A DNA stretch of 64,000 nt, taken from Scenedesmus sp. PABB004 (Eukaryota). Positions 1 to 56,128 of this stretch are shown here, one piece after another (position 1 is the stretch's first letter; every line of letters begins with the position of its first letter). The position numbers were made by a program, and so were the translations under genes. The notes beneath the pieces were generated by a model, which was not told the DNA's origin, searched no databases, and saw nothing but the letters and a program-made list of their open reading frames with translations. The DNA lies in the NCBI GenBank assembly GCA_014905635.1, contig JABVCE010000003.1, forward strand, positions 1,302,001-1,366,000. The letters run 5' to 3'.

Positions 1-3000
1 AGGAGCTGGCGTTCACCGCGGAGGACAAGAAACAGTACGGCGGCTGGTTCGGCGACGCGCCCGCGCCGAGCGGCAGCGCCAGCGACGGCGAGCCCGGCAG
101 CGACGGCGGCGGCGGCGGGCCCGGCGGCGCGGCGCGCAAGCGGCCGCGCAGCGAGTTCGACGCCCTGCACAGCAGCGACGAGGAGGAGGACGGCGGCGGC
201 GAGGGCGGCGAGGGCAGCGAGGAGTATGACCAGGCCGAGCTGGTGCGCGGTTGGGGATGGGTCGCTGGGTGCCGGGGGACCACGCACGGCGGCAGGCTGC
301 GGGTGGCGCCGCCCGCCCGCCCGCACGCGCGCGCGCCGCCGACCGCCGCGCCCGCGCGCCCGCCCGCAGGAGGCGCTGTGGGAGGCAGAGGAGGCCGGCG
401 GCGGCGCGGGCGCGCAGCAGCCCAGCGGCGGCAGCGGCGGCGAGCAGGGGCTGAGTGATGATGAGGAGGAGGACGAGGAGGAGGAGGAGGAAGAGGAGCT
501 GGATGATGAGCAGCACAGGTGGGTCGCGGCAGCTCAAGCGGGCGGGGCAGCGCGGGCGCGCGCAGCGGCGCGGGGCGCGCACGCGGCCGGGCCGCAGCCC
601 GCCGACGCCTGGGCCGCCCTGCACCGTGGCGCGCGCACAGAGCCATGCTGGCGGCGGCGCTGGGGCGCGACCCGACGGCCGGCGGCGACGGCGGCGGGCG
701 CTCGCGCAAGGCCGCGGCGGTCGCGCGCAACACCGTGGTGGCCGAAGCATACCCAGAGAGCGAGGCGCACGCTGGCGGCGGAGGTGCGTCGACCGCGCTG
801 CAGCGCCGGCCGCAGCGGCAGTGCAGCGGCGTCAGGCGCAGGCGCAGCAGCGGCACTGGCAGTGCCAGCGGCAGCCGCAGCCGCAGCGGCGGCAGCCAAC
901 ATGCAAGCACTGCGTGTAAGGTGGCCGCGGCGTGTTCAGTGCCCGGCTGTCTAAGGGTTTGTGCGAGAGCAGAGCGGCCGATCCAAACGGCTGCAGGGCA
1001 CGGCGGCAGGTGCACCGATCCTTCGCCCTGCCGTGGCGCATGACCCCTGCAGCAACCTGTCGGCCGCACACGCACGCGCCGCCGCGCCACGCGCGCCCAC
1101 GCACGATGGCCGCGGCTGCGCTTGAGTGCTCACCACGTGCGCTGCCGCCGCCGCCGCCGCCGCCGCCGGCCGCCGCGGCGCGCGCGCGCACAGGCGCCGG
1201 CGAGCTGCGGCTGGCGGACCTGCTGGACGGCCTGGGCGCCGGTGGCGGCGCCGCGGCGGCGAGCCTGGGCGGCGCGCGGAAGCTGCTGGAGAAGCTGGAC
1301 CGCGCGGGCGCGCCCGTGTCGGCGCCGCTGCCGCGCAACGTCGCGGAGCGGCTCGAGCGCAAGGCGGGCTACGAGGACACCAAGCAGGACGTGACCAAGT
1401 GGCAGCCGATCGTCAAGGCGCGGCGGCGCCGCGCCGCGCCGCGCGCGCGGGAAGGGGGCTGCGGCCGCCAGCCCCCACCTGCCCGCCTGCCCGCCGCGCT
1501 CGCCGCGCTCGCCGCCCACGCGCGGTCCGCCCGCCGACCCCGCCGCCGCGCAGGCCAACCGCGAGGCGCCGACGCTGCGCTTCACGTCGGCGCGGCACGA
1601 GGTCGCCGCGCCCGCCGCGACGCCCGCGGCGCTGGTGGAGGGCTTCACGCCCAACGCTGAGGACCCGCTGGAAGCCCAGGTGCGCTGCTGCGCCCACTGG
1701 CACCCCCGGCGCGGCTGCCCCACGCTCTGCCGTGCGCGCGTCTGCAGCGAGCGGCCTGCCGCAACGCGCTGCCGCCGCTGCGGCGAACCCCGCGTGCAGG
1801 TCGCGGCGCTGCTGAGCGCGGCGGGGAGCGCGAGCGCGGCTGCCATGGAGGAGGCGGAGCAGGCGCTTGCAGAGAAGGTGGGCTCAGGGCACGGGCGACG
1901 GCCCTGGCGCGCGCCACGCACAGCGCGCGGCGCCGGCTGGACGCCCGCGGCGCCGCCGGCCGACCGCGCCCGCCCGCGCGCGCGCGCGCGCCTGCCCGCC
2001 GCCCGGCCGCGCAGTCGCTGACGCTGGAGGAGGCCAAGGCGCGCGCCGACCGGCTCGCGCGCATGCGGCACCTCCTGTTTTACGCCGAGCTCAAGTCGAA
2101 GCGCCTCGCCAAGATCAAGTCCAAGGAGCACCACCGCCGCGCCAACCGCGCCGCGAAGCGCGCCGCCGCGCGCGTCGCCGAGGCCGGCGGCGACGAGGAG
2201 GCCGCGGCGCGCGCGGCGGCCGAGGACGCCGAATACGACCGCGCCAAGGTGGGTGCGGCGGGCAGGTTGAGAGGGTTTTGTTTGGTTTTGCGCGCTCGAT
2301 CGCGGCCAGGCGCAGCGACAACAACGGCACCGGCACCGGCAGCGCCAGCGGCAGCCGCAGCCGCAGCGGCGGCAGCCAACATGCAAGCACTGCGTGTAAG
2401 GTGGCCGCGGCGTGTTCAGTGCCCGGCTGTCTAAGGGTTTGTGCGAGAGCAGAGCGGCCGATCCAAACGGCTGCAGGGCACGGCGGCAGGTGCACCGATC
2501 CTTCGCCCTGCCGTGGCGCATGACCCCTGCAGCAACCTGTCGGCCGCACACGCACGCGCCGCCGCGCCACCACGCGCGGGGGACGCGCCCGCGCACGCTG
2601 GCCGCGGCCGGCGCCGTGCGCGCGCTCACGCGTCACGGGCGCCGTGCGCGCCGTGCGCGCGCCGCCGCCGCGCAGGAGCGCCTCACGCTGAAGCACAGGA
2701 ACAGCAGCAAGTGGGCGCGGCGCGCGCTCAAGCGCGGGCAGCCGGCGCTGGAGCCGGGGACGCGGGAGGCGATCGCGCAGCAGCTGGCGCTGGGGCAGCA
2801 GCTGCGGCAGTGCGTCGAGGGCCGGCGCGGCAGCGGCAGCGACGGCGAGGGCGGCGGCGGCAGCGGCGACAGGTGCGCAGGCGCGGGGCGCAGGCCGCGC
2901 CGCGCCACGCCGCGCCGCGCCGCGCCTCTGCCGCGCGCGCTGCGCTGACCGCCCCGCTCCGCCGCGCGCCCCGCAGCACCTCTGCGAGCGAGCCGGAGGA

Positions 3001-5004: not shown

Positions 5005-7137
5005 TCACTGCTGCTGGCGCTGCAGCACTGCCGCAGTGAGGGCCTGCAGCAGCTCGCCGACTGTCATGCGCTGCAGGTCGGGCAGCAGCTCCAGCGCCGC
5101 CCGCTCGCCGAGGCCCGGCCCCGTCGCCGGCTGGCCGCCACGCGGCGGCGCAGCGCGGGTGCCGCCGCTAAGGGCCGCGGCGGCGGCGGCCGGCCCTCCG
5201 CCGTTGGCCTCCGTCCCCTCCTCCGGCCCCTCCTCCGGCAGCAGCAGCTCCGAGAGTGCTGTCGCCCAGCTGCCGCCGCTGCTGGTGCTGCCGCGCGGGC
5301 GGTCGCTGGCACCGGCCTGGTCTCGGCCGGGCGGCAGGTCGCCGCCGCCGTTGCGAGAGAAGGATGACCCCGCTGGCTGCATCTGTGGCGGCGCGGCCCG
5401 CTCCTCCGCGCGGCCGGCCGGCGGCGCCGCGCCCCCGACAGCAGCGCCTTGGCGGCGGCCGCGGACGCCGCTGCGCCGCGCGCCGCCGGCGCCTGCCAGC
5501 CTGGCGCCGCCGCGGCGGCGGCCGCCCCGCGCGGCACTGCGGTCGCCCCGGCCCGGCCAGCGACGCGCGCCTGCTCTCGTAGGACAGGCTGGGCCGGCGC
5601 GTGTAGCTCTGCGCGCCGAGCGCGGTCGACAGCGCGGCGACCGCCTCGCGCTCCTCGTCCTCGTCCGAGCCCTGCTCGCCCTCGCTGCTGCCGCGGCTGG
5701 GGCCGGCTGCCGGCTGCTGCCGCTGCGCCGCGCCTGGCGCGGCGCCCCAGGCGAGCTGTGCAGGCGGCGCCGCCGGCGCCGGCGGCGCCGCCGGCGGCGG
5801 CGGCGGCTCGCCCCAAGCGCCGCCACTGGTTGCGAGGCTGCGCACCTCGGCGCACGCCGCCGCCGCTGGCGGCAGGCCCTGCAGCATCGCGAGCCGCTCG
5901 AGCCGCTCGCTCGGGAGGCGCGCCACGACGTCGGCCAGCACGAGTTGTAGCACCGCCGCGCGGCTGCGCGCGCTCAGCCGCGCGGCGCGGCCGCCCAGGA
6001 CGGCCTGCACGCCCTGCAGGGCCGCGATGCCGCTGCCGAGCTCGGCGGCGCGCGTGGCGAGCTCGGTCGACGTGATGGCGAGCCGGTTGGCCTCCTGCGC
6101 CAGCTGCAGCCGCACGCCCGCCGCCTCGCCGCCGGCGCCGCAGCCGGCCATGCCGAGCCGCGCCGCCTCCAGCGCCTTGCGCCGCTCCGCGGCGGCCTGG
6201 AGCGCGTCCGCCGCCTCCAGCGCGCGGCCCTGGAGCTCGTCCTCCAGCAGCGCCGCCGCGAGCAGCCAGGAAGGCAGCTCGTCCGCCGCCTCGGCTGGCT
6301 GCCCCACGGGCGCGCCCGCTGGCGCAGGCCGCTGCGGCGCCAGCGCGGCCGCCACGGCAGGGTACGCGCCGAGCGCCAAGCCCGCGAGCGTGGCGCCGAG
6401 GTGGTCTGGCGGCGCGGGCCGGCCGGGGCGGGCGCTGCCGCCGCCGGTCATGCCGGGCTGGCCCCCGCTGGCCGGCGCGCGACGATCGTCGCGTGACGAT
6501 GAACTGCTGGCGGCCTGCTGCTGGGGTCCGTGCAGCTCGTACAGCGAGCTGGCAAACGCGGCAAGCACGTTGGGCGGCGGCGTGGCGCCGCTCGTGGCGG
6601 GCGAGGGCGGCGCGGCCGTGCCCGCGTCGAGCGCACCTGGCGGCGCCGCCTTGGCCGCGGCGGCGGGGTCGGCGCCGCGCAAGCCGGCCAGCGACGGGCG
6701 CGGCGCCGCCGCCTGCAGGAGCTGGTGGTGGCTGCGCAGCAGCGCCGGCGAGGGCCGCGGCGACGCGAGGCCCGCCTCGCGCCTGTTGCGCGGCTTCAGC
6801 ATGCCGCGCCCTGCGGTGCGGTCAGCCGCGCGCGCGGCGTGGGCGTGTGGCGCGAGGCGCGCGCGCCGCGGCCGCCGCCGCGCTCACACTTGCGCCACAG
6901 CGACGCCGCGCGCTCCGCAGGCGCCGAGGGGGTCGGCGGCCCCGCGCGCTCCGCTGCCGCGCCCGCCGGCGGCGCCGCAGCCTCCGCCGGCCCCACCTCG
7001 CTGGGGGCGTGCTGGGAGAGCCAGCTGAGCACGCGTTGGTGCGGCGCGCGATCGCTGCCGCCGCTGGGCGCGTGCTGCATCGGCGCGGCCGGCGCCGCGC
7101 TCGCCGGCGGCGGCGGGCCCGCGCGGCGCGGCGGCAT
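5005..7137 (-). CDS. Hypothetical Ala/Pro-rich coiled-coil protein (structure uncertain; apparent frameshift near 5547)
   Basis: Coding-like ORF 5168-6802 (LLEDELQGRALEAADALQAAAERRKALEAARL), a plausible upstream exon at ~6890-7137, and a C-terminal segment ending ELLPDLQRMTVGELLQALTAAVLQRQQQ* in another frame. No recognised domain. Confidence 0.45.
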
Positions 7138-7425: not shown

Positions 7426-7812
7426 TCACTTGCGCCCCGCGGCGGCGGCGGGCACGGAGGCGGCCAGGCCGGGGTGGGAGAGCGCCACGCGCTGCGGATC
7501 GCCTCTGGCCCAGGTGCACGCGGGGTCGCCCAGCTCCACGCCGTTGCTCGCGCCGTCGCCGTCGCTGTCGGCGGCGCAGAGCTCCGGCGTCCAGCGGTAG
7601 CCGGCCGCCTCAAACGCCTGACCGAACGCGTTGCGCGCGCCGCCGCCGGCGCGGTCGACGTGGCCCACGCCCGGCCAGGGCGCGCCGTTGACGACGGGAA
7701 TGGACGGCAGTTCAGACATGAAGCGGGGGAACGCCGCCGCCGGCGCTGCCGCTGCGGCCAGCAGCAGCAGGCCGAGCCCGAGGGCGGTTGGAAGCTGCGC
7801 GCGCGGGGCCAT
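7426..7812 (-). CDS. Small secreted temptin-domain protein
   Basis: Signal peptide [27 protein letters not shown], followed by WPGVGH..GGGARNAFGQAF...WTPELCAADSDGDGASNGVELGDPACTW..SHPG, the characteristic temptin-like motif. The 3' end could be spliced (CAA|GTGAG). Confidence 0.8.
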   Translation of the reverse strand: MAPRAQLPTALGLGLLLLAAAAAPAAAFPRFMSELPSIPVVNGAPWPGVGHVDRAGGGARNAFGQAFEAAGYRWTPELCAADSDGDGASNGVELGDPACTWARGDPQRVALSHPGLAASVPAAAAGRK

Positions 7813-7936
7813 CTCGGCCGCCGCGCTGCCTGCTCGTGCGGGCTGGGGTGAGGGCGGGGCGGGGAGGAATGGGGCGCAGGAGGCGGGCGGCCGCTGCAAG
7901 AGCGGCTGTCACTTGAAGCTGTCACTTTCGGCGCCG

Positions 7937-8044: not shown

Positions 8045-11000
8045 TCACGCCATCGCGCGCAGGCCGGCGGCCGCGCCCGCGGCGGCCGCCGCGGCGGCGT
8101 CCTCGGCCTCCCAAAACTCGGCCACCACCGCCTCGCCCACGGTCACAAGCAGCGGGAAGTCCACCGCCGCGAGGCGGCCCCACTCGCGGCAGCCCGCCCA
8201 CGTCGAGGGCGGCACGCCGGGGCTGCCGAGGCCGGCGAGCAGGCGCGCGAGCGCGAGGCCGTTGAAGCGGGCGCGCCCGAGGTCGCGCGCGCGCCCCGCC
8301 ACGCTGCGCAGCGCCGCGCGCAGCTGGCGCGCGAGCGCGTCGGCGCTCGGGCGCTGCACGGGGCAGGGCGCGCCCCAGGGCATCTCGCCCGCCGCCAGCG
8401 CGTCGGCGACCGGGTCGGCGCCGCCGCCCGCGGCCCAGGGCGCGGCGCCCGCGCCCGGCGCGCCCGCGCCAGCGCCCGCCGCCGCCGCGCCGTCCGCCGG
8501 TGCGCACTCGGCCTGCGCCGCCGCGGCAGCCGCGGCGGCGGCCGCCGCCTGCGCGGCCGCCGCGCCGCCGGCGGGCGCGGCGAGGCCGGCGGCCTCGTCC
8601 ATGAAATACTCATCGATCGCGGCGCGCAGGTGGCGCTCCTGCGCGGCGGCGCTGCCGTGGATGGCCGCGCCCGCGAGCGCCGCATAGCATCGGTCCAGGC
8701 GCGACACCGACGCGCGCAGCACCTATCGCGGCACGCCCGGGCGCGAGCGCGGGCGGGCGCGGGCGGCAGCGGCGAGGGTGAGCTGGCGGGCGGCCGGCGG
8801 CGGCGGCCGGCCGCCAGGCCTGCGCGGGGCGCGCCTGCTCGGTGCGCGCGGCGAGCGCGGCGACCAGGCCCTCCCAGTCTGCCGGCTGGCGCTCGAGCCT
8901 CCACACGAGCGCGCCCTGGCGGCCGAGGTCAAAGCCGATCTCCTGCGCCGCCGCGAGCGCCGAGAGCTCCGCCAGCAGCTCGCCGGGCGGGCGGTCCGCG
9001 ACGGAGAGCAGCGCGGGCAGGTGCACCTGCGCGCCGCGCGGCGGCGCTCAGCGCGCTCAGTGCGCCGCTCGGCGGCGTCGCCCGGCAGCGCGCAGAGTGC
9101 CGGGGCAGGCAGGAGTGCGATACGCAGTGCGGCGGCGGACCTTGTAGGTCCCGCCATACTTCCTGCACTTGGCCTCCAGCATCGCAGCCACGACCGGGTG
9201 TTCCGGCGCGAGCGCCTCGGGCGCCCGCCTGCGCGCGCCGGGCGGGCGGCCCGTCGCGCCGCGCGGCTGCCGGCGCGGCATGGCGCGGCGCCGCCGCGAG
9301 CAGCGCTGGCCCGCGCGCGCGAGCAGCACCGGCCCGCACCGGTGGAAGCGCACGTCGATCAACGCCGCCGCGTTGGGCAGCGCCGCGAGGTAGGGCTCGG
9401 TGGGGTCGGCCTGCAGGAAGGAGAGGCAGCCCTCCAGCACCTCCTCAGCGAGGTCCAGCTCAGCGCACGCGGCCGCGAGCGGCAGCGCCCTGTGCGCGGG
9501 GCGGGGCGGGGCGCGGGCGGCACCGCTGTGGGCGGGGCGGGGCGGCCCGCGCCGCCGGGCGCGCCGCCGCGGGCGGCGCGCGAGCGCGCGCGCGCGCGGC
9601 GCCGCACTTGTGCTGGCTCGGCGCGAGCGGCGGCGCGTCGGGCTTGGCCCGCTTGGCCTTGGCCGCGCCGCCGCCGGTGCCGCCGCCGCGCGGCGGCCGC
9701 CGCGCCGGCGGCGCCGGCAGCGTGCCCGGCGCCAGCCCGCCGTCGCGGCCAAACACGGTCGCGAGGAAGCGGCGCAGTGCGCCGGGCGGCGGCGTCGCGC
9801 TGTGCGCGAGCGCGCGCAGCTTCACGTAGTCGCCGTCGTCCAGGAAGAGCAGGCAGGGCGCGACGCGGCCGTCGCGGCCGGCGCGGCCGACCTGCTGCAC
9901 GTACTCCTCGAGCGAGTGCGGCAGCGCCGCGTGCAGCACCGCGCCGAGGTCGGGCTTGTCCAGGCCCATGCCAAACGCGACCGTCGCGACGACGACGCGC
10001 AGCCCGCCGCCGAGGAACGCGCCCTGCAGCGGCGGCGGCGCGTGGCGGGCGGCGCGCGCGCGGCGGGCGGGCGTGAGCGCGGCGCAGCGGCGGCGCGCGC
10101 GGGCGGCGGCCGAGGCGGCGGCGGCGGCGGCGGCGGCGGGGCCCGCAATTCGCGCACCTGCACGGCCTCGCGCTGCGCGAGGGAGAGGCCCGCGTGGTAC
10201 GCGCGCGCCGGCACGCCCGCGCGCTGCAGCTGGCCCGCGAGCGCGTCGGCGGTGGCCTTGAATCCGGCATAGACCACCGCGCTGCCCACGCCCGCGAGCT
10301 CGCCTGCGCGCGGCGTGGCGGGGCGTGGCGGGCGCGCGCGCTCGGCGGCCGTACGGTGCCGCCCTTGCCATCGTCACCGCACCGGCGCCGCGCGCGCACC
10401 CGTGGTGAGCAGCTGCACGATTGCCGCCGCGGTGCCGCCCTTGCTGCCGCCGTTGACGTGCCGCACCGCGAGCCGCAGGTTGGGCCGCAGCGGCGACTCC
10501 ACGAGCTCGCCCTCGGGCGGCACCGCGAGCAGCTGCCGGATGCAGCCGCGCGTCGCGGGCGTCGCGGTCGCCGTGAGCGCCAGCACCGCGCGCGGCGGTA
10601 TGACCTGCGTCAGCAGGTGCCCCAGCCTGCGCGGCGCGCGGCGTGGACGGCGCCGGGTGAGCGGGCTGGGGCTGGCGCGCCACACGCGGCACGCGCGGCA
10701 CACGGGCAAGCACACTCGCATCACACGCAGCACGCGCAGCACGCGCGGCGCGCCCCCTCGCCTGAAGTATGCCGGCCGGAAGCCCTGGCCCCACTCGGCC
10801 ATGCAGTGCGCCTCGTCCACGCACACGAGCGGCAGCGGGCTCAGGCGGCGCAGCAGCGCCATGACGGGGCCCGAGCTCAGCTTCTCTGGCGCGACGTACA
10901 GCAGGCGCAGCTGCCCCGCCTCGGCGCGCTCCAGGATCTGCGTGGTGCGTGCGTGGGCGCGCGCGCGGCACAGGCGGAGTGTGGGTGTTGCGCGTCAGGG

Positions 11001-20821: not shown

Positions 20822-22133
20822 ATGCTCCTCTCCCGCGCTGCGCCCGTCTGCAGGCTCGCGGCCGCGCCGCAGCGTGCTGGCGTCTGCGGGTGCGCGGCGC
20901 AGCACAGCGGCGGCTGCGCTGGCAGTGGCGGCAGCGATGGCAGCGGCGCAGCGCGGCGCAGCGCCGGCAGTGGCAGCAGCGGCAGCGGCAGGGCCCACCC
21001 GCTGCGCGTGCAGCCCGCTCACGTGGACCACCCCCACCGCCCTCGCAGGCAGCTGGCGCCGCTGCCGCGCATGGCGCCGGCGCAGCGGCGCGGCGTCGCG
21101 GCGTCCGCCGCGGCCGCTGCGGGCGGGGCCGACGACGTGACCGGCGACATGCTCGCGCCGTCGGCCGCAAATACGCCCTGGGCGCGCGCGCTGGGCACCG
21201 CCGCCGCGGTCGCCGCGACCGCGGCGTCCACCACGGTCATGCCGGCCCAGGGCGCGCACTTCGTGCACCTGCTCTGCTGGGGCGTCATGCTCGTGCGTGG
21301 CCGCCGCTGCGGGAGCGCGCTGCCGCCGCCGTTGGCGGGAGCTCGCCGGTGCCGCCGCCGCGGCGGGAGCTCGCTGGCGCCGCCGCCGTGGCGGGAGCTC
21401 GCTGGCGCCGCGCCCGCCGCGCGAGCGCGCCGCCGCCGCGCCCGCCGCCGCCGCGCGCGCCTTTTCAGGGTGCCAACGTGTGGAACAGCTTCTTCGTTGG
21501 CCTGACAATGTTCAAGAACATGCCGCGCCAGATGTTTGGCCGGTGCGCTGCGTGCCTCGCACGGGCCGTCGCGGGCCCTGGGCTCGCCGCGCCGCACTCA
21601 CCGCCGCGCCGCACTCGCCGCCGCGCCGCAGGGTGCAGTCAAAGCTCTTCCCGGCCTTTTTCGCGCTCACGACCGGCGCCAACCTCGTGCTGCTCGGCGG
21701 CCTCTGGCTCGGCGGCCTCGCGGCCGCGCCGCCCAACGCGGTCGCGACGCTCGGCGGCTGCGCGCTCGCGTCGGCGGCCAACTGGCTCGTCATTGAGCCC
21801 AAGGCGCGCCGGGGGCCGGGGGCCGGGGGCTGGCGCCGCGCGCGCGCGCGGGGCGGCGCTGGGCAGGCGCTGCGGGGCGGCGGCGGGCGCCGGGCAGCCC
21901 ACGCGCCGCCGCGGCCGCCGCGGCCGACCGCCGCCCCGCAGACCACGGCGGTCATGTTTGAGCGCTATATGATCGAAAACAAGGCGGCAAAGGGCCCGGA
22001 TGACGAGGCGGCGATCAAGGCGCTGTACAAGCGCTTCGGCGCGCTGCACGGCGCGAGCAGCGTGCTCAACCTCGGCGTGCTCGCCGCGACCGTCGCGTAC
22101 GGCTGGACCCTGGCCGGCCGCCTCGCGCTGTGA
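20822..22133 (+). CDS. TMEM205: TMEM205 / DUF4149 membrane protein
   Basis: HFVHLLCWGVML|GANVWNSFFVGLTMFKNMPRQMFGR|VQSKLFPAFF...ANWLVIEPK|TTAVMFERY...LYKRFGALHGASSVLNL. The start codon is uncertain. Confidence 0.88.
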
Positions 22134-34888: not shown

Positions 34889-35832
34889 TCACGCCAGCGG
34901 CCAGCCGCAGCAAAACTGCAGGCACTGCACGCCGGGCGGACAGGCGTCGCCAGGGTCGTCGGCGGCCGCCGCCGCTCCGGCTGGCTGCTCCGGCGACCGC
35001 CGCAGCACCTGCGCATGCGCGACGCCGCCGCCGCAGAGGTACCCGATGGCGAAGCTGGGTGCAGTGAACGCAGCGACCAGCTCGACCCGCAGTCGCGGCG
35101 GCCGCTGCACGCCCACCTCCTCGCCGCCGCTGCCGTCACCGCCGCCGCAGCCGACACCGCCTCTGCTGCCGTCTCCGCTGCAGCTCCTGCACCCGTCGTC
35201 GGCGCCGCCGCCGCCCACGACCCGCAGCGCCAGCAGGCCCGCGTCCCAGGGCCCCGGCTGGGTGAGCAGCTGCGTCTCCAGCAGCTGCACCGCCAGCGGC
35301 TCCAGCTCCTGCTCGGGGCTGAGCTGCAGCTCCATCGCCGCCGCCTTTGCCAGCGTGGCATGCATGATCCGCTCGCCCACGCCCGACACGCTCACGGCCA
35401 CGCCTGCGGCACGGGGCGCGGCGCGCGGCGGTGCCCCCGGTGAGCCGTTGACACACACCGCTGCGGCGGCGCCGGCGCGCCGGCGCGGCAGCTGCGCCGC
35501 CGCGCACCTGGCACCTTCGGCTGCTCGCCGCGCTCGCCCGCCGCCGGCTGCGGGTGCGCCGCCCAGCAGCCCGCGCCGAGCAGCGCCGCCTCGCCCACGC
35601 GGCCCTCGTGCTTCATCGCCAGCCCGCCGGACGACACGCCCGCGGCCACGCGGCCGCGCGCGTCGACGACCACGCAGCCCACCGTGTCGCCCACGTCGGC
35701 GCACCGCGCACCGCCCGGCGGCCGGGCCTCGCTGCACAGCCGCGCGCGCTTTGCGGCGGGCGCGTCCGGGCCGCCCTGCTCCCTCGACGGCCCCTGCGGC
35801 TGCTCCTGCTGCAGGTGCTCCTGCTGCTCCTG

Positions 35833-35907
<75 letters not shown>

Positions 35908-36808
35908 CTGGCCGTCGGCCTCTGCTGCCGCCGCCGCCGCCGCCGCCGCCTCCGCGTCTGCCAGCATCCCGCAATACGACTGCCACGCCTCGAAGGCTGC
36001 GGGCGTGACCAGGCGCTGCGCAGCGGCGGCGGCACGCGACCGGGCGTGAGCGCCGCGGCGCCGCTTGCCAGCGCGCACCCGGCGCGCCGCCGCACCTGTC
36101 CCGCCTCCTCCGCCGTTGCAGCACCGCGCAGGCCCTGCCCGAGCGCCCATCGCCGCGCGGCGTCCCCCACCAACAGCCTGCGGCCAGCAGCGCGGTGCGT
36201 CAGCGGTCGCGGCGCCCCCGCTGCCGCCCCCGGCCGCCGCCGCCGGCCGCACTCACAGCGGCCGCACCAGCCCGCACGGCAGCGGCGTCCGCGACAGCAG
36301 CGCGAGGCGGTGCGCCGCGGACACCGGGTTGTCTATGCCTGCCGGGAGCGGGGCGGGCGCACGGGGCTGGGCCGGCGGGGCGCGCGCTGGGCCGCCGCCG
36401 CCCCGCCCTGCGCGCGCCGCAGCGCCGCGGCGCGGCCGCACCCGGCGCCGCGCCGACCGCGCCGCTGGTGCCATCGCCGTCCATTACGCACGCGTCGCAC
36501 TCGGCCGTGCCGGCGGCCGTCAGGTTGGCGCCCCGGCCGGCGTTGGGCAGCGGGTCGTCCTGCGGCCGGCGCAGGCGCCGTCGCCCGCTGCGCCTGTGCG
36601 CCCCCGGCGCGCGGCGGCGGCGCCAGCGCGCCGCGCGCGCCTCGAGCGCGGCGATGGCCGCGGCGACGGCGTCGAGCGGCGCGCCGCCCGCCTCGAGCGC
36701 CGCGCCGGCGGCGGCCAGCGCGGCGCGCAGCGCGGCGCGGTAGGCGGCCTCCTTGCCGGGGCGGTGCCAGCCGGCGCCGGCGTGGACGGCGATGAAGAAG
36801 GGCGGCAT
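34889..36808 (-). CDS. TASP1: Threonine aspartase (taspase-1, Ntn-hydrolase)
   Basis: FIAVHAGAG; AALE|DDPLPNAGRGANLT..ECDACVMDG; GIDNPV; autocleavage site DTVGCVVVD..AGVSSGGLAMKHEGRVGEAALLGAGCWA; SVSGVGERIM. Confidence 0.92.
35836..35901. repeat. (CTG/CAG)22 perfect microsatellite encoding poly-Gln in taspase
   Basis: Counted directly: 66 nt, uninterrupted. Confidence 0.9.
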
Positions 36809-37418: not shown

Positions 37419-38335
37419 GCGCCCGCGCCCACGCGCCCGCGCGCCCGCGCGCGCCGCAGCATGGGCCACTTGCAGGAGCTGCTGGCGCGGCTGGTGGGCG
37501 GCGAGGTGCGGCTCTTCACCACGCCCTGCATCAGCGGCGAGCTCAGGGGCCTGGGCCCGGAGTTCAGGCCCACCGCCGACGCGGCGCGGCAGCAGCAGCT
37601 GCACAAGTGCGGCCACGAGGCCGCGCAGGCGCCGTCGGACTGCCTGCTCGACGCCGTGGCGGGCGGCAACCCGGCGCACTGGTGGATCGCGACGCAGGCG
37701 CGGCGGAGGCTGCTGGCCGCGGGCGCGCGCAGCCACCGGCGGCGCTCGCGCGGCGCCGGCGCGTCCGCTGCTGCCCGCCCACCTGGCACACCCTCCCGCA
37801 CGCCGGCGCAGGACAAGGCGCTGCAGGCAGAGCTGGGCGCGCTGCAGGCAGTGCCGGTGCTGTTTGCCAGCGTCAACGGGCTGCACCTCGCGGAGCCGCC
37901 GGAGCAGGCCAAGGCCGCGGTGGCGGCGGGGCACGCCGAGGCGCAGGCGCGCACGCGCGGGGGCGACCGGGCGCCAGCGCCGGCGCGCGGCCCGCACCCG
38001 CCGCCACCGGCTCCGCCGCCGCCGCCGCAAACGCGCGCCGCGCGTGCGCGCCGCAGGCGCTGCCGGCGCACGAGCGCGCGTCGGCGCCGCTGCGCGACCT
38101 CGCCGAGCTCCGGCCGCGCGACGAGGGCTGGAAGAAGTTCCGCCGGAAACGGACAAAGGGCCCAAACCCCCTGGCGGTCAAGAAGAAGAAGCAGCAGGCC
38201 AAGCCCAGCAAGGGCGCCCGGGAAGCGGCGGCCCCGGCGGGAGCGGCGGCGCCGGGCGGCGGCGGTGGCGGCGAGGGCGGCGGCAGCGGCAAGAAGCGCA
38301 AGCGCAGCAAGCGCAAGGCCGGCGGCGCGGACTGA
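37100..38335 (+). CDS. UTP23: rRNA-processing PIN-domain protein UTP23
   Basis: MRRKKQKHTRRSVSFYKINYGFREPFK|VLLDGNF; TTPCISGELRGLG; HKCGH; IATQ|DKAL; KRTKGPNPLAVKKKK. Confidence 0.95.
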
Positions 38336-39043
38336 GGGGCCTGTGAGCGGCTTGTGAGATTGAACGTCGGTGTGTTACCGATCCAATCCAGTCCGCCGGC
38401 GGCCGCTCGCTCTACGCGCTAGGCTCGAAAGAAGGCGCCCCGCGCTGCCTGCTGCTGCTGCCCAAAAGCGTGCGCCCCCGCGCGCGTGCCTGCCTGTACA
38501 GCCCCGCCGAGCCGCGCTGCAGCTGCTGCTGGCTGGCGCGCGCGGCGGCGCCGGGGCCCCGCGATGGCGGGCGCCCCGCGCGCGCCGCGCCGCGCCGCCC
38601 CGCCCCCGTCCCCGAGGCGCTGTGCATGACCGATGGTCCTCGGGCAAGTGCCTGTGTATGTACCGGGGGAGAGAGAGAGAGAGCCTGCTGCGGCCCCCAA
38701 AACGTCAACCGCAGCCTCGTTTGCCTCGCGCGCCAGGCGTGGCGCTCAGGCGCCCGCGCCGGGCGCCGTCCTCGCGCGCACGCCGCAGCCCCCTGCTGGC
38801 CGGGGCGCGGCTTGGTGGGTTTGTATGATGATCGACGTCGTTCATACGACGTCGCTTATGATGATGAAACGACGTCATTTATGTAGCGCTCAGGCCGGGC
38901 CCCACGGGGGCCCGACCTGAGGCGGGCGAGCGATGCGCGCGCGGGGCGCGCACGCGGTCCGACGCCGGCCCAACCAGCCGGCAGAGGCGACACACACACG
39001 CGCACACACAGAGATACCACAACGTCACGCCCGGCGGCGGGGC

Positions 39044-40975
39044 TCACTGCCCCGCGCGCACGGGCTGCTCCAGCGCGGCCGACCAGGCGGCGCCGTCGTG
39101 CATCGCCGAGGCGAGCAGCTCGGCCACCGACGCGCCGCCCGCGGGCGCCGCCGCGCCGCCGCCGCCGCCGCCGGCGAGCCCCGACAGCGCCAGCACGCGC
39201 GCGACTGCGCCGAGGTGCGCCGGCGACAGCGCGGCCGCGCTGGTGGGCGGCTCCGGGTCGGCGGGCGCGGCCGCGCCGCCGCCGCCCGCAGACATGAATG
39301 CCTGCAGCATCAGACCCAGCAGCTGCGCCTGCGCCTCCGCGCTGCCCGGCGCCGCGGCGCACGCGGGGCTGCCGGCGCGGCCGCCGCCGCCGCGCGGCGG
39401 CACGGGGCCGAGCGGGCTGCCGCCGTCGGCGCCCGCCGCGCTCACGTCCAGCACGGCGCGGGGCCTGGCGCCGGGCGCGGCGTCCCACGCGGAGACGCCG
39501 CAGTGGCGCTTCACGGCGGCGCCGCCGGCGCGGCCGCCGGGGCTGCGCTTGGCGCGCTGCTGCAGGTGCAGCTTGAGGCTGGCCGGCGCCATGGGGGAGC
39601 CCTCCTCGTCCTGCGCGGTGCCGTCGCTGTCCTCGCTGTTGCTCCGCGCCCCGCCGGGCGCGCCGCGGCGCTGGCGCAGCTGGCGCAGCTGCGCCTGCTG
39701 CTCGCACAGCTGCTGCGCGTCCGCGTCGCCGCCGCGCTTGGCCTGCGCGCCGCCCTGCTGGCTGCCCTCCTCCTCCTCGTCCTCCTCCGCGTCGAGCTCC
39801 ATCAGCGCCGCGCGCGCCAGCGCCAGCAGGCCCACCGCCGCGCCCTCCTCGCTGTCGTGCGCGCCGCCGCCGCCGCCGCCGCCCCCGCCGCAGGCGCCGT
39901 CCAGCGCGCCCACGTCGAGCGCGAACGCGCCCGGGTGCGGCTCCAGCTGCGCGCTCTCGCTCGGCTCGTAGCCGCACTCGTCGCCGCCGCCCGCGGCGAG
40001 GCCGTACGCCGCTGCAAACGCCGCCGCCGCGCCCGCCGCCTGGCGGCCAAACGCGGCCGCGAGGTCCAGCGCCGCCTCGCTCGCGCCGAGCTCGCCATCG
40101 CCGCCGTCGTCGTCGGCCGGCGCCGCCGCCGCCGCCGCGCGGCGCTCGCTGCGGCTCGACGGCCGCGACGGCGGCGCGTGCGCGGCGAAGAACTGGCTGC
40201 TGCTGCTGCTCGGGTAGCCGCTACCCAGCGTCGGCGCGCGGCCGCCGCGGCCGGCGCCGTTGAGCGTGATGACGCCGATGCTGGCGAGGTAGCGCTGCAG
40301 GATGGTGAGGCGCGCGGGGTCGTGCGGGACCTTGCTGCGCACCGGGCGGCGGCCGCGGCGGTCGGGTGAGCGCGGCGCCGCGGCGCTGCTGCCGCGTGCG
40401 GGGCTTGCGCCGCGCCGCGCCGCGCGCCGCCGCACCGGCGCGCGGTGCAGTTGTAGTGGTTTTTCACGCTCGTCTCGGTGCGGCCGGGCAGCATCGACGC
40501 GATGAGCGTCCACTGGTTGCCAAACTGGCGGTGCCCGTCCACGAGCGTCTCCTCCTCCGCGTTGCTCCACTCGCCGGTCTTGATCCCGGGCACGAGCTGC
40601 TGCAGGTAGCGGCTGCGGCACTGCTTCGGCGCGCGCCCCAGCAGCGCGGGCCGGCCCATCAGCGTGTTGAAGTGCCGCGCCACGACGCTCCAGTTCTTCT
40701 CGCCGTGCACGGCGACCGCCCTGCGGCAAGCGGCGCGCGGCGCACAGCGGCGGCACCCGACGGCGTGGGCGCCGGCGCGCGCCGCCGCGCCGCCGCCGGC
40801 GGCCGCGGCGGGCAGCTGCTCTGGGCCGCGCGTGCCGCCCGGCCCGGCCGCCGGGCGCCCACGCGCTGCTGCTGCTGCGGCCGGCGAGGCCGCCCGCGCG
40901 CGGCGCGCACTTGCGCAGCGCCTCATCCTCCTCGGGCCGCCAGCAGCCCTTGAAGTGTGTGTTGTCGACCGCCAT
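39044..40975 (-). CDS. R2R3-MYB transcription factor
   Basis: KGCWRPEEDEALRK|AVAVHGEKNWSVVA..GRAPKQCRSRY..PGIKTGEWSNAEEETLVDGHRQFGNQWTLIASMLPGRTETSVKNHYN, followed by a low-complexity C-terminus. Confidence 0.93.
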   Translation of the reverse strand: MAVDNTHFKGCWRPEEDEALRKCAPRAGGLAGRSSSSAWAPGGRAGRHARPRAAARRGRRRRRGGARRRPRRRVPPLCAARRLPQGGRRARREELERRGAALQHADGPARAAGARAEAVPQPLPAAARARDQDRRVEQRGGGDARGRAPPVWQPVDAHRVDAARPHRDEREKPLQLHRAPVRRRAARRGASPARGSSAAAPRSPDRRGRRPVRSKVPHDPARLTILQRYLASIGVITLNGAGRGGRAPTLGSGYPSSSSSQFFAAHAPPSRPSSRSERRAAAAAAPADDDGGDGELGASEAALDLAAAFGRQAAGAAAAFAAAYGLAAGGGDECGYEPSESAQLEPHPGAFALDVGALDGACGGGGGGGGGAHDSEEGAAVGLLALARAALMELDAEEDEEEEGSQQGGAQAKRGGDADAQQLCEQQAQLRQLRQRRGAPGGARSNSEDSDGTAQDEEGSPMAPASLKLHLQQRAKRSPGGRAGGAAVKRHCGVSAWDAAPGARPRAVLDVSAAGADGGSPLGPVPPRGGGGRAGSPACAAAPGSAEAQAQLLGLMLQAFMSAGGGGAAAPADPEPPTSAAALSPAHLGAVARVLALSGLAGGGGGGAAAPAGGASVAELLASAMHDGAAWSAALEQPVRAGQ

Positions 40976-48992: not shown

Positions 48993-51900
48993 CCCTGCCG
49001 CCGACGCGGCCCTGCCGCCGCCCGCCCTGCCGCCCAGGCGTGCGCGGGGCTGTCCTACTCGTTCAGTGTGTACGCGCCGACGCTCAAGGACGCGCTGGGG
49101 CTGAGCCAGACCCAGATGGCGAGCGTCGGCAGCGCAGTCAACCTTGGCGGTTACGGGGCGATCTTTTCGGGCAGCGTCTACGACGCGCTCAAGGACCAGC
49201 ACCGCCTGGGGCCGCGGTGCGCGCGCACCGCGTGCGGCGCAGCGCGCCCAGCGCGCCCAGCGCGCGCCGCCGCCGCCGCCGAGCCCCGCACCGCCGCGCC
49301 GTGCCGCGCGCGCAGGCTGACTGTGTGGCTGGGTGCGCGACCTGACCCGCGCAGCCGGGGCGCGGCAGTCCCGCGCGCGCGCGCGCGCCGTCGCCGGCGT
49401 CCGCTGCGGGCGCTCTTGCTGCGCGCCAGCTGACCAGCAGCCGCGCTCGAACGCCGCAGGCTGCCTGTGCTGCTTCTGTGGCTATCTCGGACTCTATCTC
49501 ATGGTCAGCGGAGCCGCGCCAAACAGCTTCCCCCAGCTGCTCGTCTTCGCCGTCGCCGCGGGTGCGCCGCCGCCGCCGCCGCCGCGGGGCGCAGCCGCGC
49601 GTCCGCCGTCGCGCCTGACGACGCCCGCCGCCGCCGGCGCTGCCGCAGGCAACTCGGGCACCTGGTTTGACACCTCCTCGCTCGTGACCAACGTGCGCAA
49701 CTTTCCAAACGACCGCGGCTTTGTGGTGGGCGTGCTCAAGTCGTTCCTCGGCCTCTCCAGCTCCCTCTACACCAGCATCTGTGCGCGCGCGGCGCCCGCG
49801 GCGCCGCCGGCCGCGCCAACGCAACGCGCGCCCCCTGCGCTGCGCCGCTAGCCCGCCTCGCGGCCGCCCGAGCCGCCCGGGCGCTGCGCCGCCTCCTCCT
49901 CCGCCCCGCGCCGCCGACCAGACATGGCCTACTTTGAGCCGGACGCGGCGGCCTTCCTGCTCATGCTCGCGCTCGTGCCGAGCGCCGTCACCGGCGTGCT
50001 GAGCTTCTGCCTCAACCACGTGCCCTTCGTTGAGGCGGCGGAGGGCGCCGCCGGCGCGGGGAGCACCGAGAGCCGGTGCGCGCCGCCGCCGCGGTCCGCC
50101 CGGCCGCCCACACGCGCGCGCGCCGCACGGCCGACCGCGCGCCGCACGAGCAACCGCCGCCGCCGCGGCGCCGCAGCTTCCTGGCGTCGTTCCTGGTCGT
50201 CGCGGGGCTTGCCCTGTACCAGATGGCCTGCGCGGTGCTGGTCGGCCGGCAGGCGCTCGGCCCGGGCGTGCGCGGCGTGACGGTGCTGGGCATGGCGGCG
50301 CTGCTCTGCCTCGCCGCGGGGCTGCCGCTGCGCTGCGGCGGCTGGCGGGCGGTGTACGCGCATGACTACATCACCACGCCGCCGCGGGAGGGCCTCCCGG
50401 ACGAGGAGCCCCGCGCCGGCCGCCGGCGCGGCACCGGCGAGGGCGGCGGCGAGCCGGGCAGCCCGCCGGCGGCGTGCGGCGCGCGCGGCAGGTGCGGCCG
50501 GCGGCGGCGGCGGCGGCGCTGGCGCTGCCGGCGCCGGTGCTGCCGGCGCTGGGCGGGGCCGCGCCGCCGGCTCACGCAGGCCCGCCCCCGCCGCCCCGCC
50601 CCGCGCAGCCTGGTGCTGCACGGCGGCACGGCGCACCACCGAGCAGTGGCGTCGTCCAGCGGCGGCGGCAGCCGCCCGGGCTTCCCCGTGCGCGTGGCGC
50701 CCGGCAGCGCCGGTGGCCACCGCAGCTGCTCGCCGGTCCCCGCGGCGAGCTGGGGCGCCAGGGGCCGCGCCAGCGGCGGCGGCAGGGGCGGCCGGCGCAG
50801 CTCGCTCTCCGGCCGCGACGGCGAGCCGGACGACGCGGCGGAGGCCGCGCCGCTCCTGGCGGCGCCCGGCGCCGACAAGCCCGGCGCCGGCGCGGGCGGC
50901 CCGGGCTGCAACGGCGTGTGCGGGCCCGCGCCCGGCGCGCCGGAGCCGCCGCCGCCGCCGCCCGCCGTGGGCGGCGGCCTGACGACGCTGCAGATGGTGC
51001 GCTGCCTCGACTTCTGGCTGCTGTTTTTCCAGTTTATGGTCGCGAGCGGCGTGTGCCTCGCCTACCTCAACAACCTGGGCCAGATCGTGACCAGCCTCGG
51101 CGGCGGCCACGACGGGCAGGTCGTGTTCGTCAGCCTCTTCAGCGTCGCCAACGCCGCAGGTGCGCCGCGGCAGCCGCGCCGCCGCGCCGCCGCCCTGCGC
51201 CGCGCTCCGCTCTGCCGCCGCAGCCGGCGCGGCGCGCACACCCGCGCGTGTCCGCCCGCCCCGCGCGTGCCGCCCGGCCCGCCCCGCCCGCCGCCCGGCC
51301 AGGCCGGCTGCTGATGGGCTACGTCCCGGAGCAGGCCCTGCACGCGGCGGGGCGGCCGCGCACGGCATACCTCACAGCCACCGCCGCCCTCACCGCCGCG
51401 TCGGCGGTCGCGCTGGCCTTTGCCCGGCTCGGCCACCTCTACGCGATCAGCCTCCTCCTCGGCGCCGTGTTTGGGGGCACTGGAGCCTGCTGCCCGCCAT
51501 CACGAGGCGCGCCGCGCCGCGCCGCGGCTGCAGCGCCGGCGCCCCTCGGCCCGTGTGCGGCGCCGCGCGCAGCACCCCCCCCCCCACACCCACCCGCCCG
51601 CGCGCGTCCGCCCACGCCCGCGCCCGCCCGCGCGCAGCGACCTGTTTGGCCTGAAGCACTTTGCCGCCAACTACACGACGCTCCAGTTTGCGCCGGCGGC
51701 GGGCTCGTACCTGCTCGCCAGCTGGCTCACTGGCGCGCTTTATGATGCCGCCGCGCGCGCGCACGGCGACCCGCACGACTGCATCGGGCCCGACTGCTTC
51801 CGCCGCGCCTTCCTGCTGCTGGCCGGCCTCGCCGCGGTCGGCGCCGTCGCGTGCGCCGTCGCGACGGCGCGCAGCCGGCGCGCCTACGCGGCGATGGCAC

Positions 51901-52261: not shown

Positions 52262-55200
52262 ATGCCGGGCGCCTCCGAGTCCGACGATGACTGGCAGGCG
52301 CCAAACAGCACGCGCGCTGCCCGCCGCGTGAAGGCGCTGGGCCGGGCGGGCGCCGCGACGCCCGGCAGCGGAGTTGTGAGCAGCGCCGCCAAGCGCCGGC
52401 CCGTGAGCGCCACCCCGCGCCCCGCGAAGCGGCCCTCGCCACCGGCCGAGCGTCAGGAGCCCAGTGCGTTGCCCAGCGCGCCCGCCGGAGCCGCGGCGCC
52501 GGGCGGCGCGCCCGGGCGCGCGCGCGACGACGGCCCAGCTCGGCCGGCGGCGGCGCAGCGCGCCAGCCCTGTGCCGGGCGGCGCGGCGCGGCTGGAGAGT
52601 GGGAGCGTGGGAGGTGATGACGACGGCAACGACTGGCTGCAGCAGGAGCTGTTTGCCGCGGACGACGACCTGGAGTGGGGCGGCGACGAGCAGCAGTGGC
52701 CGAGCCGGCAGCCGAGCGCCGCTCGCGACCCCGCGCCTGGCGAGCCGCCCGGCGGCGGCACCGACGCCGCCGGCGGGGGGCAGCTGTGCCCCGTGTGCGG
52801 CTGCTGCCTGTCGGGTGTGTCGGACACGGAGGCGGGCCAGGCTTCGCACGTGAACGCGTGCCTCGACGCGGCAGCAACGCAGGGCGCGCCGCCGCCGCGC
52901 GCCGGCGCGCTGGCGCTGCAGGTGGCGCCGGACGACGACGAGGACGGCGTGGCCGCGTGGCTGGCCGGCGTCGCCGCGTCGGCCGCGCTGCCGGCGTTCC
53001 GGGACGCAGAGGTGGACCTGAGCGTGCTGCCGCACCTCAACGACCACGACCTCCAGGTGCGGCCGCGCTGGCCGGCTGGGTGAAGCTGGCCGCTGACGTG
53101 CACGCCCATGCTGCTGCGGGCTTCCCACGCTGCCGCCGCCGCCGTGCGCAGGCGATGGGGGTCGACGACGCCGCGCTGCGCGGCCGCATCCTGGCGGCGG
53201 CGACGCAGCAGCAGGACGGCGGCGGCGGCGGCGGCGGCAGCGGCGGCTCGCCGCCGGGCGCCACCGGCAGCGGCTGGAGCAGCAGCAGCAGCGGCGCCAG
53301 CTCGGAGGACGAGGCCGGCAATGACGACGCAGGCGACGGCGACTGGGGCGACGTCGAGGAGCCGGGCGACGGCGGCCTGCTGGATGGGACCGCCTGGGGC
53401 GCGGCCAAGGCACAGCCGCGGCGGGCGCCGCTGGCAGCCGCCGCGCCACGCAGCGACAACGCCGGCGACAACGCCGGTCGCGCGGCAGCGGGCGCGGATG
53501 GCCAGCAGAGCAGCATCACCGGCTGGCTGCAGCTGGGCCGGCAGCAGGAGCCGCAGGGCCAGGAGGGCCAGCAGCACGGCGAGAACCCGCGGCAGCCGGC
53601 GGCGTCGGCGAAGCAGCAGTGGCAGGCGCTCTTTGCTCGGCCCGGCCGCGTGCTGGCTCCGCCGCAGCCGCTGCCCGAGCGGCAGCCGCGCCGCGCACAG
53701 GCGGCGATCGGGCCGGGCGGGCGGCTGACCGCGGCGGCGCCGGGGCAGCAGCTGGCAGCCGCACGGCCGCCGGCGCCGCTGCCCAGCCTGAACCGCGGCC
53801 GCACCGCCGACCTGCCCAGGTGCGCCGCGCGACGCGCGCAGCCGCGGCGCCGCCGCACGCGCCGCGCCGCGCCGCCGCCGCCGCCGCCCGCCGCCGCCGC
53901 CGACGGCCCCGCTGCCGCCGCGCAGCTGGTGGCCCGCGTGGCGGCGGCTGCCCGGCACCAACATCGTCGTCGACTCGTTTGGCCCCACCAGCAAGTCGCT
54001 GGGCCTGGGGCGCACCTGGATTCTCACTCACTTTCACGCCGACCACTACATGGGCCTCGGCAAGTCGTTCAAGCAGGGCACCATCCTCTGCACGCCCGCG
54101 ACAGCCGCGCTCGCGCGGCTCAAGCTGCGCGTGCCCGAGGCCGCGCTGCGCCCGCTGCCGCTCGGCGAGGAGGTGACGGTCGAGGGTGAGGCGCGCGCCA
54201 GGCCGGGGCGCGCACTGGCCGCGTGCCGGGCTCCGGGCGCCGGGCTGCGCGCTGGGTTGCGCGCTGGGCTCCGAGCCGCCGCGCGCCGCCGCCGCGGCAG
54301 GCACGCGGCTGCAGTTCGTCGACGCCAACCACTGCCCCGGCTCGGCGATGGTCGTCGCGCACCCGCCCGGCGGCGCGCCGCCCGTGCTGCACACGGGCGA
54401 CGCGCGGCTGAGCCCGGAGGTCATGACCGCCCAGCCGGCGCTGCAGGCGCTCGTGGGCCGCGCGGTGCTCGTGCTCGACACCACGTACGCAGACACCCGC
54501 TACGACTTCCCGCCCCAGGCGGCGGTGCTCGACTGCGTGCTGCAGCGCGTCCAGGTGCGCGTCGCTTGCCTGCCGCACGCCGCGCGCGAGACGCGCCTTA
54601 AGCCGCGCCCCTTGCCACGCGCCACGCCGCGCGCCACGCGCCCGGGCGTCAGGCCGAGGCGTTCAACCCGCGCACGCTGTTCCTGTTTGGGACCTACACC
54701 ATCGGCAAGGAGCGCCTCTTCATGCACGTCGCGGCGGCGCTGCGCGAGCGCGTGTACGTCTCGGCCGCCAAGCGCGGCGTGCTGGCCTGCCTCGGTCTGC
54801 CGCCGGAGCAGGCCGCGCTGCTCACGGCAAACCACCTTGACGCGCGCATCCACGTGGTGCGGCCTGCGCGGCCGCGCGGCCGCCGGGTCAGCCCGCCCGC
54901 GCGCCGCGCCGCGCCGCGCTGCGCCATGCCGCGCCGCCCAGCGCGGCGCCGACGGAGCCCCGCCGCGCGGCGGCGCAGGTGCCGATGCGGCAGGTGAGCC
55001 TGGCGGAGATGGAGTCGCTGCTGGTGCGCTACAAGGGGCGCTACACCTCGGTGGTGGGCTTCCAGCCCACGGGCTGGGCCCACGGCGGCGGCGGCGGCGC
55101 GCGCGGCGGCGCCGGCATCTCCCGCGCGAGCGCGAGCGTGCGGCCCAGCAAGCGCCTGCGGCGCGGCTCAGTGGTGCTCTACCAGGTGCGGCGCCGCCGC

Positions 55201-56128
55201 CAGCGGGGAGGGCGGGACGAGGGAGGGGGCGGGCCGGCCGCGCCGAGGCGGGGCTGGCGGGGCTGGCCGGCTGGCACGCCGCCGCCCGACAGCGCCGCCG
55301 CCGCCGCCGCCCGGCGCGGCCCAGGTGCCCTACTCGGAGCACTCGAGCTGCGAGGAGCTGCGCGCGTTTGTGGAGTGGTTCAAGCCGATCGGCATCGTCC
55401 CCAGCGTAAGCAACGACAGCGGGCCCAAGCTGCGCGCGATGCTCGCGGCGCTGGCCCGGCCGGGGCCCACGGTGGGGCCGATGGACGCGTTTGCCCGCCG
55501 CGCCCCGCCGCCGGCGGCGCGCGAGCCCGGGGAGCCCGGCGGCGGCGGCCGAGCGCCGGCGCCGCAGGCGCAGCAGGCGCAGCAGGCGCCGGCGCTGCTG
55601 CCGGCGCCGCCGGCGCTGCTGCCAGCGCCGCCGGCAGCCCTACTGGCGCAGCAGCAGCACCAGCACCAGCACCAGCAGCCGTGGGAGCAGCAGCCGCCGC
55701 GGGAGCAGCGGCTGCAGCAGCCGCCGCGGGAGCAGCGGCTGCCGCCGCGGGAGCAGCAGCTGCAGCAGCCGCCGCGGGAGCAGCGGCTGCCGCCGCGGGA
55801 GCAGCAGCTGCAGCAGCCGGGGGCTGCGCTGAAGCGGCAACAGCTGCCGCCGCAGCGCCAGGACCAGGCGCGCGGCGGCGGCGGCTGGCTGGCTGCCGGG
55901 CGGCAGCTGCAGCTGCCACCGCAGCAGCAGCCACTGCAGCAGCAGCCGCAGCCAGTGCAGCAGCCACAGGCGAGGCAGCAGCCGCAGCCAGTGCAGCAGC
56001 CACAGGCGAGGCAGCAGCCGCAGCCACACCACCAGCCAGCAGGCCGGGCGCCGCAGTCAGCCGGGCGGCCCGTGCGGCGCCTGCTGTCGTCGGTCACTGG
56101 CGGCGGCGAGCCCGCGTGGCAGGGCTGA
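52262..56128 (+). CDS. SNM1: SNM1A/DCLRE1A-like DNA cross-link repair nuclease with UBZ-like zinc finger and SAM domain
   Basis: CPVC..HVNACLD zinc finger; FRDAEVDLSVLPHLNDHDLQ|AMGV SAM-like segment; LTHFHADHYMGL; DANHCPGS; LHTGDAR; LDTTY; GTYTIGKE; VPYSEHSS; Gln/Pro-rich tail. Confidence 0.92.
55687..55818 (+). repeat. Coding minisatellite (QQPPREQR/QL repeats)
   Basis: Five CCGCCGCGGGAGCAG units in the SNM1A tail. Confidence 0.8.

Follow-up and report, generated by a model that had tools for sequence, protein, structure and literature searches.

The 64,000-nucleotide (nt) stretch of Scenedesmus sp. PABB004 analysed here (contig JABVCE010000003.1 of assembly GCA_014905635.1, positions 1,302,001 to 1,366,000 of the forward strand; hereafter the window, with all coordinates counted from its first letter) carries a UTP14 gene near its start. 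Two introns of this gene each contain the same 172-nt element, which in its sequence features is probably a genuine dual-guide H/ACA small nucleolar RNA (snoRNA). A preliminary description of this DNA had proposed such an RNA at 902-1073, with predicted targets in the decoding region of 18S ribosomal RNA (rRNA) and the peptidyl-transferase region of 25S rRNA, and had overlooked the identical copy at 2382-2553.

Host gene and duplicated intron block

The exons that flank both copies match the Pfam family Utp14 (PF04615; E = 1e-13, 5e-13 and 2e-59) and also align with green-algal UTP14 proteins, which bears out the proposed placement on the sense strand of a UTP14 intron. The closest named UTP14 is that of Raphidocelis subcapitata (64% identity), followed among named proteins by that of Chromochloris zofingiensis (58%) and those of other chlorophytes, in line with the claim that the host is an alga and placing it, probably, within or close to Sphaeropleales; two further UTP14 relatives are closer still, at 70% and 69% identity. 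Pattern searches for UTP14 relatives gave 82 matches in viral contigs and 81 in genome contigs, none of them confirmed in either set.

Reading frame, splice sites and homology place the first eight UTP14 introns at 127, 122, 410, 146, 120, 137, 428 and 104 nt. Each of the two long ones contains the element, and none of the other six, which measure 104-146 nt, does. The two copies share the orientation of UTP14 (sense strand), and each ends about 120 nt upstream of the 3′ splice site. The window as a whole is 80% GC, and the 5′ half of each copy falls in one of 36 segments with a GC content of at most 62%, which together account for 1.3% of 80-nt windows. The 146-nt intron at 1408-1553, which follows the exon ending in ...ATCGTCAAG, is apparently of the GC-AG type; it was placed by reading frame and homology only.

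The features of the two introns are as follows.

784..1193, + strand: UTP14 intron hosting copy A, 410 nt, GT..AG (boundaries placed by reading frame and homology)
902..1073, + strand: copy A of the candidate H/ACA snoRNA (sequence, folds and architecture scan)
2248..2675, + strand: UTP14 intron hosting copy B, 428 nt, GT..AG (boundaries predicted)
2382..2553, + strand: copy B, identical to copy A at 172/172 nt, with its H box at 2446-2451 and its ACA at 2548-2550
847..1090, + strand: duplicated block, equal to 2327-2570 at 99% identity

When the two introns are aligned, identity is uninterrupted over 864-1090 (227 of 227 positions), a run that spans the whole 172-nt element. Upstream of it, similarity fades within about 30 nt, with three mismatches plus gaps over 833-863; downstream, a 12-nt insertion or deletion is followed by 37 matches, four mismatches and four gaps over 1091-1135. 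BLAST found no third copy of the element in the window, and its remaining matches were to the GCAGC-type low-complexity flank. Because copies A and B are identical, they offer no covariation between them.

Element anatomy and predicted targets

H/ACA RNAs share a layout of hairpin, hinge, hairpin and tail, with an H box (ANANNA) in the single-stranded hinge and an ACA 3 nt from the mature 3′ end. The two strands of an internal pocket form duplexes with the rRNA that flank an unpaired U-N, at a canonical pocket-to-box distance of 14-16 nt, and the RNAs are bound by Cbf5 (dyskerin), Nop10, Nhp2 and Gar1. The parts of copy A, whose ends are nominal (the 5′ end is undefined and the 3′ end is taken as ACA plus 3 nt), are the following.

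907..964, + strand: hairpin 1 (RNAfold of 902-965)
914..918, + strand: 5′ guide of pocket 1, GUGUA, pairing with 18S UACAC, 3′ of the target U-G (5 base pairs (bp) in 4/4 ribosomal DNA (rDNA) units)
953..958, + strand: 3′ guide of pocket 1, AAGGGU, pairing with 18S GCCCUU, 5′ of the target U (6 bp in 4/4 rDNA units)
966..971, + strand: H box AGAGCA, which fits ANANNA, in the hinge between the two hairpins (sequence)
974..1067, + strand: hairpin 2 (RNAfold of 972-1067, -54.6 kcal/mol)
985..988, + strand: 5′ guide of pocket 2, AAAC, pairing with 25S GUUU, 3′ of the target U-A (4 bp in 4/4 rDNA units)
1055..1061, + strand: 3′ guide of pocket 2, ACCUG(UC), pairing with 25S (GA)CAGGU (7 bp in 4/4 rDNA units)
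1068..1070, + strand: ACA box, immediately 3′ of hairpin 2 (sequence)

The motifs named in the preliminary description, namely AGAGCA and ACA as boxes and GTGTA, AAGGGT, AAAC and ACCTGTC as guides in the DNA, are all present at these coordinates. Its succession of hairpin, H box, hairpin and ACA was likewise recovered from the sequence, from RNAfold of each hairpin and from the architecture scan described below, which returned both copies as full double-hairpin layouts.

In the fold of 902-965, hairpin 1 has a lower stem at 907-910/961-964, an upper stem at 919-931/941-952 and a loop at 932-940; its pocket strands are 911-918 and 953-960. Hairpin 2, folded from 972-1067, has a lower stem of 8-9 bp (974-981/1060-1067) with an internal loop above it, pocket strands at 982-988 and 1055-1059, a mismatch, G989·A1054, at the top of the pocket, and an upper arm of 64 nt (990-1053) that rises from G990-C1053. 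It is far more stable than expected for its composition (z = -4.86; none of 200 shuffles was as stable). Since the 3′ guide strands begin 13 nt upstream of their respective boxes (at 953 and 1055), the target U lies 14 nt from the box in both pockets, and the spacing originally proposed stands. The element thus shows the layout of the class, an ANANNA H box and two-stranded, rRNA-pairing pockets 14 nt from their boxes. Small Cajal body RNAs (scaRNAs) carry a CAB box, UGAG, in their apical loops; UGAG was not found in the apical loops of the element (932-940 and about 1011-1024), which lacks this scaRNA mark.

Every uridine of four complete eukaryotic rDNA units from metagenome contigs (L027, L081, L007 and L014) was scanned as a potential target, with the bounds of 18S, 5.8S and 25S set by Rfam. 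These four come from seven rDNA loci: L013, in which the small-subunit (SSU) gene is cut off, and L076 and L077, with group I introns in theirs, were left out. rDNA from viral contigs was dropped as unsuitable, L001 for an odd 912-nt SSU and L002 because it has just 55 nt upstream of the large-subunit (LSU) motif.

Both pockets showed specific complementarity, and the predicted 18S and 25S sites were the top-scoring ones in all four units. For pocket 1 in register 918/953, the best match was 18S ccctGCCCTT[TG]TACACaccgc, with 6+5 bp and a score of 26 against at most 19 for the runner-up; the AAGGGU/GCCCUU duplex comprises five Watson-Crick pairs and one G·U. For pocket 2 in register 988/1055 it was 25S tgaGACAGGT[TA]GTTTTaccct, with 7+4 bp and a score of 27 against at most 15. 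Other registers gave weaker matches.

Fixed offsets from known modified positions identify the two uridines. The 18S target, in helix 28 adjoining the decoding site, precedes by 11 nt the C equivalent to yeast Cm1639, human Cm1703 and Arabidopsis C1641; it is thus the counterpart of Arabidopsis U1630 and human U1692. The 25S target belongs to the peptidyl-transferase region, where it is the second U of GGUUAG. It follows, at a distance of 54 nt, the U of the U-G-U triplet in the A-loop (Arabidopsis U2911/U2913, yeast 2921-2923; located by reading the sequence), which makes it the counterpart of Arabidopsis U2965, yeast U2975 and human U4522. The anchors at -11 and +54 thus agree with the equivalences to human 18S 1692 and yeast 25S 2975 given in the preliminary description. 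Both uridines are mapped pseudouridines in Arabidopsis (18S U1630 and 25S U2965), according to the text and supplementary tables 2 and 3 of PMC8351944, the latter of which lists 43 predicted or mapped sites across the whole 18S. The consulted parts of PMC8351944 and PMC9610020 report a pseudouridine at human 18S U1692, and those of PMC8351944 and PMC8307265 indicate that both sites have been mapped experimentally in human and the 25S site in yeast as well.

Several loci of the rDNA set are unusual in their own right. The SSU rRNA of L001 (3632-4543), an IMG/VR contig filed as viral, is of eukaryote type and covers the full 1831-position Rfam model in 912 nt with 534 bits, which makes it an 18S that is unusual or strongly reduced. 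In L076 and L077 the 18S gene is interrupted by a group I intron (8173-8528 and 5934-6233, respectively), and L014 comprises two tandem rDNA units.

Chance controls, competing explanations and the rest of the window

We scanned both strands of the window for the full arrangement of hairpin, ANANNA, hairpin and ACA, allowing no more than one G·U pair and a single mismatch at the top of the pocket, and requiring at least 9 bp for a target. Eleven architectures were found. Copies A and B are the two with targets in both hairpins, of 11 bp each; among the other nine, two have one 9-bp target and seven have none. In shuffled windows (n=21, 100-nt blocks), 51 architectures arose, nine with one target and none with two. 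Shuffled single units had a target of at least 9 bp in 748 of 7832 cases and of at least 11 bp in 82 of 7832. When the pocket strands were shuffled and matched in three registers against a whole rDNA unit, 11 bp were reached by 41 of 3000 shuffles for pocket 1 and 43 of 3000 for pocket 2, a chance of about 1.4% per pocket; the chances for the two pockets are roughly independent. Besides this fit in sequence, both matches land on known pseudouridines.

Double-hairpin matches at 21940/22027 and 22653/22750 (positions of H and ACA) were rejected as snoRNAs; they coincide with dips in GC content and have no targets. The AT-richer stretches 21465-21545 and 21941-22133, read as coding exons, are where the first of them (H at 21940, ACA at 22027) arises. 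That such coding stretches give H/ACA-like matches without targets illustrates the false-positive background of scans of this kind in this genome.

We judge that the element is probably a genuine dual-guide H/ACA snoRNA, present in two copies, because of its boxes and stems, the 14-nt spacing, the stability of hairpin 2, the identity of the copies and their sense-strand position in two long introns, and because the best rRNA matches in all four rDNA units hit mapped pseudouridines, with the shuffle controls and the low-GC 5′ halves of the copies adding to the case. Expression, processing, protein binding and the rRNA modifications themselves would be expected from membership of the class.

A number of observations weigh against this judgement. 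The rDNA units are proxy eukaryotes rather than the alga's own rRNA. Hairpin 1 is of ordinary stability (z = -0.16; 72 of 200 shuffles were equal or better) with a lower stem of just 4 bp, and although each hairpin folds as proposed when taken alone, this lower stem is absent from the minimum-energy fold of the whole element, where it gives way to alternative pairings. In pocket 2, the 5′ arm has just 4 bp, two of the seven pairs of the 3′ arm compete with the lower stem of hairpin 2, and the G989·A1054 mismatch has to be accepted between guide duplex and upper stem. For pocket 2, the dual-guide proposal holds only if that mismatch is tolerated. The identical run between the introns overshoots the RNA by 38 nt upstream and 17 nt downstream, so the identity of the copies could stem from recent duplication or gene conversion instead of selection on the RNA. 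Rfam, consulted as the preliminary description had suggested, gave no match at gathering score in the whole window, and a search of 700-2800 at E ≤ 10 left the + strand of both copies without a match. The three matches that touch an element are on the minus strand and belong to non-snoRNA families (E 4.6-8.3), and two matches to trypanosomatid H/ACA families (E = 0.73 and 3.6) overlap neither copy. A first scan, which allowed unlimited G·U pairs and demanded a standard closing pair at the pocket top, found 329 combinations of a single hairpin with a target in this 80%-GC window, 34 of them with more base pairs than the 11 of pocket 1. Given this noise, neither hairpin on its own is a safe basis for the call. 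That scan was both too permissive and too strict, overlooking pocket 2 for its non-standard closing pair G989·A1054, and was replaced by the one reported above.

Hairpins arise everywhere at 80% GC, and a recently duplicated, non-functional piece of intron might look like an H/ACA RNA by chance. The ordinary hairpin 1, the abundance of single-hairpin matches in the loose scan, the overshoot of the identical block on both sides and the silence of Rfam would all suit this explanation. We nevertheless think it unlikely, as it would have to produce two matches of 11 bp, made up almost entirely of Watson-Crick pairs and placed at the canonical distance, both on mapped pseudouridines, where none of the 51 shuffled double architectures had two targets; the element is moreover AT-richer than its surroundings and lies on the sense strand of a ribosome-biogenesis gene.

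The weaknesses of pocket 2, with its short arm, its G·A at the top and its competing lower stem, would instead fit a real RNA of the H/ACA class in which hairpin 1 is the sole working rRNA guide and hairpin 2 is structural, orphan or aimed elsewhere, for example at a small nuclear RNA. Shifting pocket 2 by one position, to register 989/1054, yields 5+3 bp close to the 3′ end of 18S in all four units, a match that is compatible with such a role but weaker. The 25S site outscores its runner-up by 27 to at most 15 in every unit and is conserved as a pseudouridine between yeast and plants, and neither apical loop carries UGAG; we regard a single working pocket as quite improbable. The length and very high stability of hairpin 2 (z = -4.86) could also suggest a different intronic hairpin RNA, such as a small-RNA precursor or a splicing-regulatory structure. 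This would leave the H and ACA boxes, the 14-nt spacing of the two internal loops and the two rRNA matches unexplained, it finds no Rfam match of any kind to lean on, and we give it very little credence.

Elsewhere in the window, which contains no N, there are 343 stop-free frames of at least 120 codons, of which 19 have the GC3-over-GC2 excess typical of real coding sequence; with so many stop-free frames at 80% GC, a list of open reading frames is nearly useless here. Pfam identifies four further genes.

7429-7908, - strand: Temptin_C gene
35395-36252, - strand: Asparaginase_2 gene
50034-51311, + strand: NFD4_C gene (slightly under the gathering score)
54998-56125, + strand: DRMBL (DNA-repair metallo-beta-lactamase) gene

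The most AT-rich island of the window, 38783-38924 (minimum GC 45%), contains two ATGATGA motifs, the second extended to ATGATGATGA, and three copies of ACGACGTC, followed by a strong GC hairpin and then CTGA. Its likeness to a C/D box RNA is superficial, the region before CTGA being a hairpin and not a guide; Rfam gave no match at E ≤ 1 over 38000-39600.

Relation to known guides and significance

If the dual-guide reading is right, the RNA would be freed from the spliced or processed UTP14 intron, fold into hairpin, H box, hairpin and ACA, and assemble with Cbf5 (dyskerin), Nop10, Nhp2 and Gar1, exposing two pseudouridylation pockets. Pocket 1 would pair with 18S GCCCUU-[UG]-UACAC in helix 28 and isomerise the counterpart of human U1692 and Arabidopsis U1630; pocket 2 would pair with 25S (GA)CAGGU-[UA]-GUUU and isomerise the counterpart of yeast U2975, Arabidopsis U2965 and human U4522. 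The preliminary description had treated the union of the two specificities in one RNA as a special combination. It is not: one 18S and one 25S site make up a normal H/ACA design, and two targets per RNA, an intronic location and several copies in one host are all normal for the class.

Intronic, multi-copy snoRNA genes of another green alga, Chlamydomonas reinhardtii, are reportedly the subject of Chen et al. 2008 (Genetics 179:21), to go by its title and a description in a citing work (PMC7671301). There, as here, snoRNA isoforms are said to recur across introns of a single host gene, and a Chlamydomonas counterpart with these two targets may already have been described. The consulted part of PMC7671301 describes snoRNAs in plants and Chlamydomonas as forming multigenic families.

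The lack of an Rfam match means that the element cannot be assigned to SNORA70, snR42, snoR97 or any other described family. Human SNORA70 (U70) belongs to the same RNA class and shares the predicted 18S helix 28 target, U1692; the candidate differs from it in having no detectable similarity of sequence or structure (Rfam at E ≤ 10 over 700-2800) and in the 25S site of its second pocket. That SNORA70 guides U1692, as the preliminary description had it, is stated in PMC9610020, citing snoRNABase; PMC7760958, in the part consulted, has the opposite pairing, with SNORA64 for U1692 and SNORA70 for U4975. Between these two papers, the guide assignment of human U1692 is inconsistent in print, and the attribution to SNORA70 is upheld by one source and contradicted by the other.

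The predicted 25S uridine of pocket 2 is also that of yeast snR42 and Arabidopsis snoR97-2. A table in PMC8307265 lists snR42 for 25S 2975, labelled peptidyl-transferase centre, in agreement with the preliminary description. In the consulted material of PMC8351944, Arabidopsis 25S U2965 is assigned to snoR97-2, which is listed also for the adjacent U2964 and for U2707. The candidate differs from both in lacking an Rfam match and in having a partner pocket aimed at 18S. The same material lists the guide of Arabidopsis 18S U1630 as 'nd' or 'unknown'.

Pocket 1 is a candidate guide for a helix-28 pseudouridine to which, in the tables and text consulted of PMC8351944, no guide is assigned in Arabidopsis. 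It is conceivable, though we put it forward as a doubtful suggestion, that the candidate RNA is the chlorophyte version of a green-lineage helix-28 guide, joined here with a 25S specificity of the snR42/snoR97 type. A literature search combining snoRNA with the names of Sphaeropleales genera showed no snoRNA study on these genera among the matches listed.

The picture of how H/ACA RNAs work stays as it was before. If the element is real, it adds an unannotated pair of snoRNA genes to this alga, and a ribosome-biogenesis gene would host guides for two functionally central rRNA sites. Should the tentative link to a green-lineage guide prove true, the guide strands and box spacing described here would provide a search model for the missing U1630 guide of land plants.

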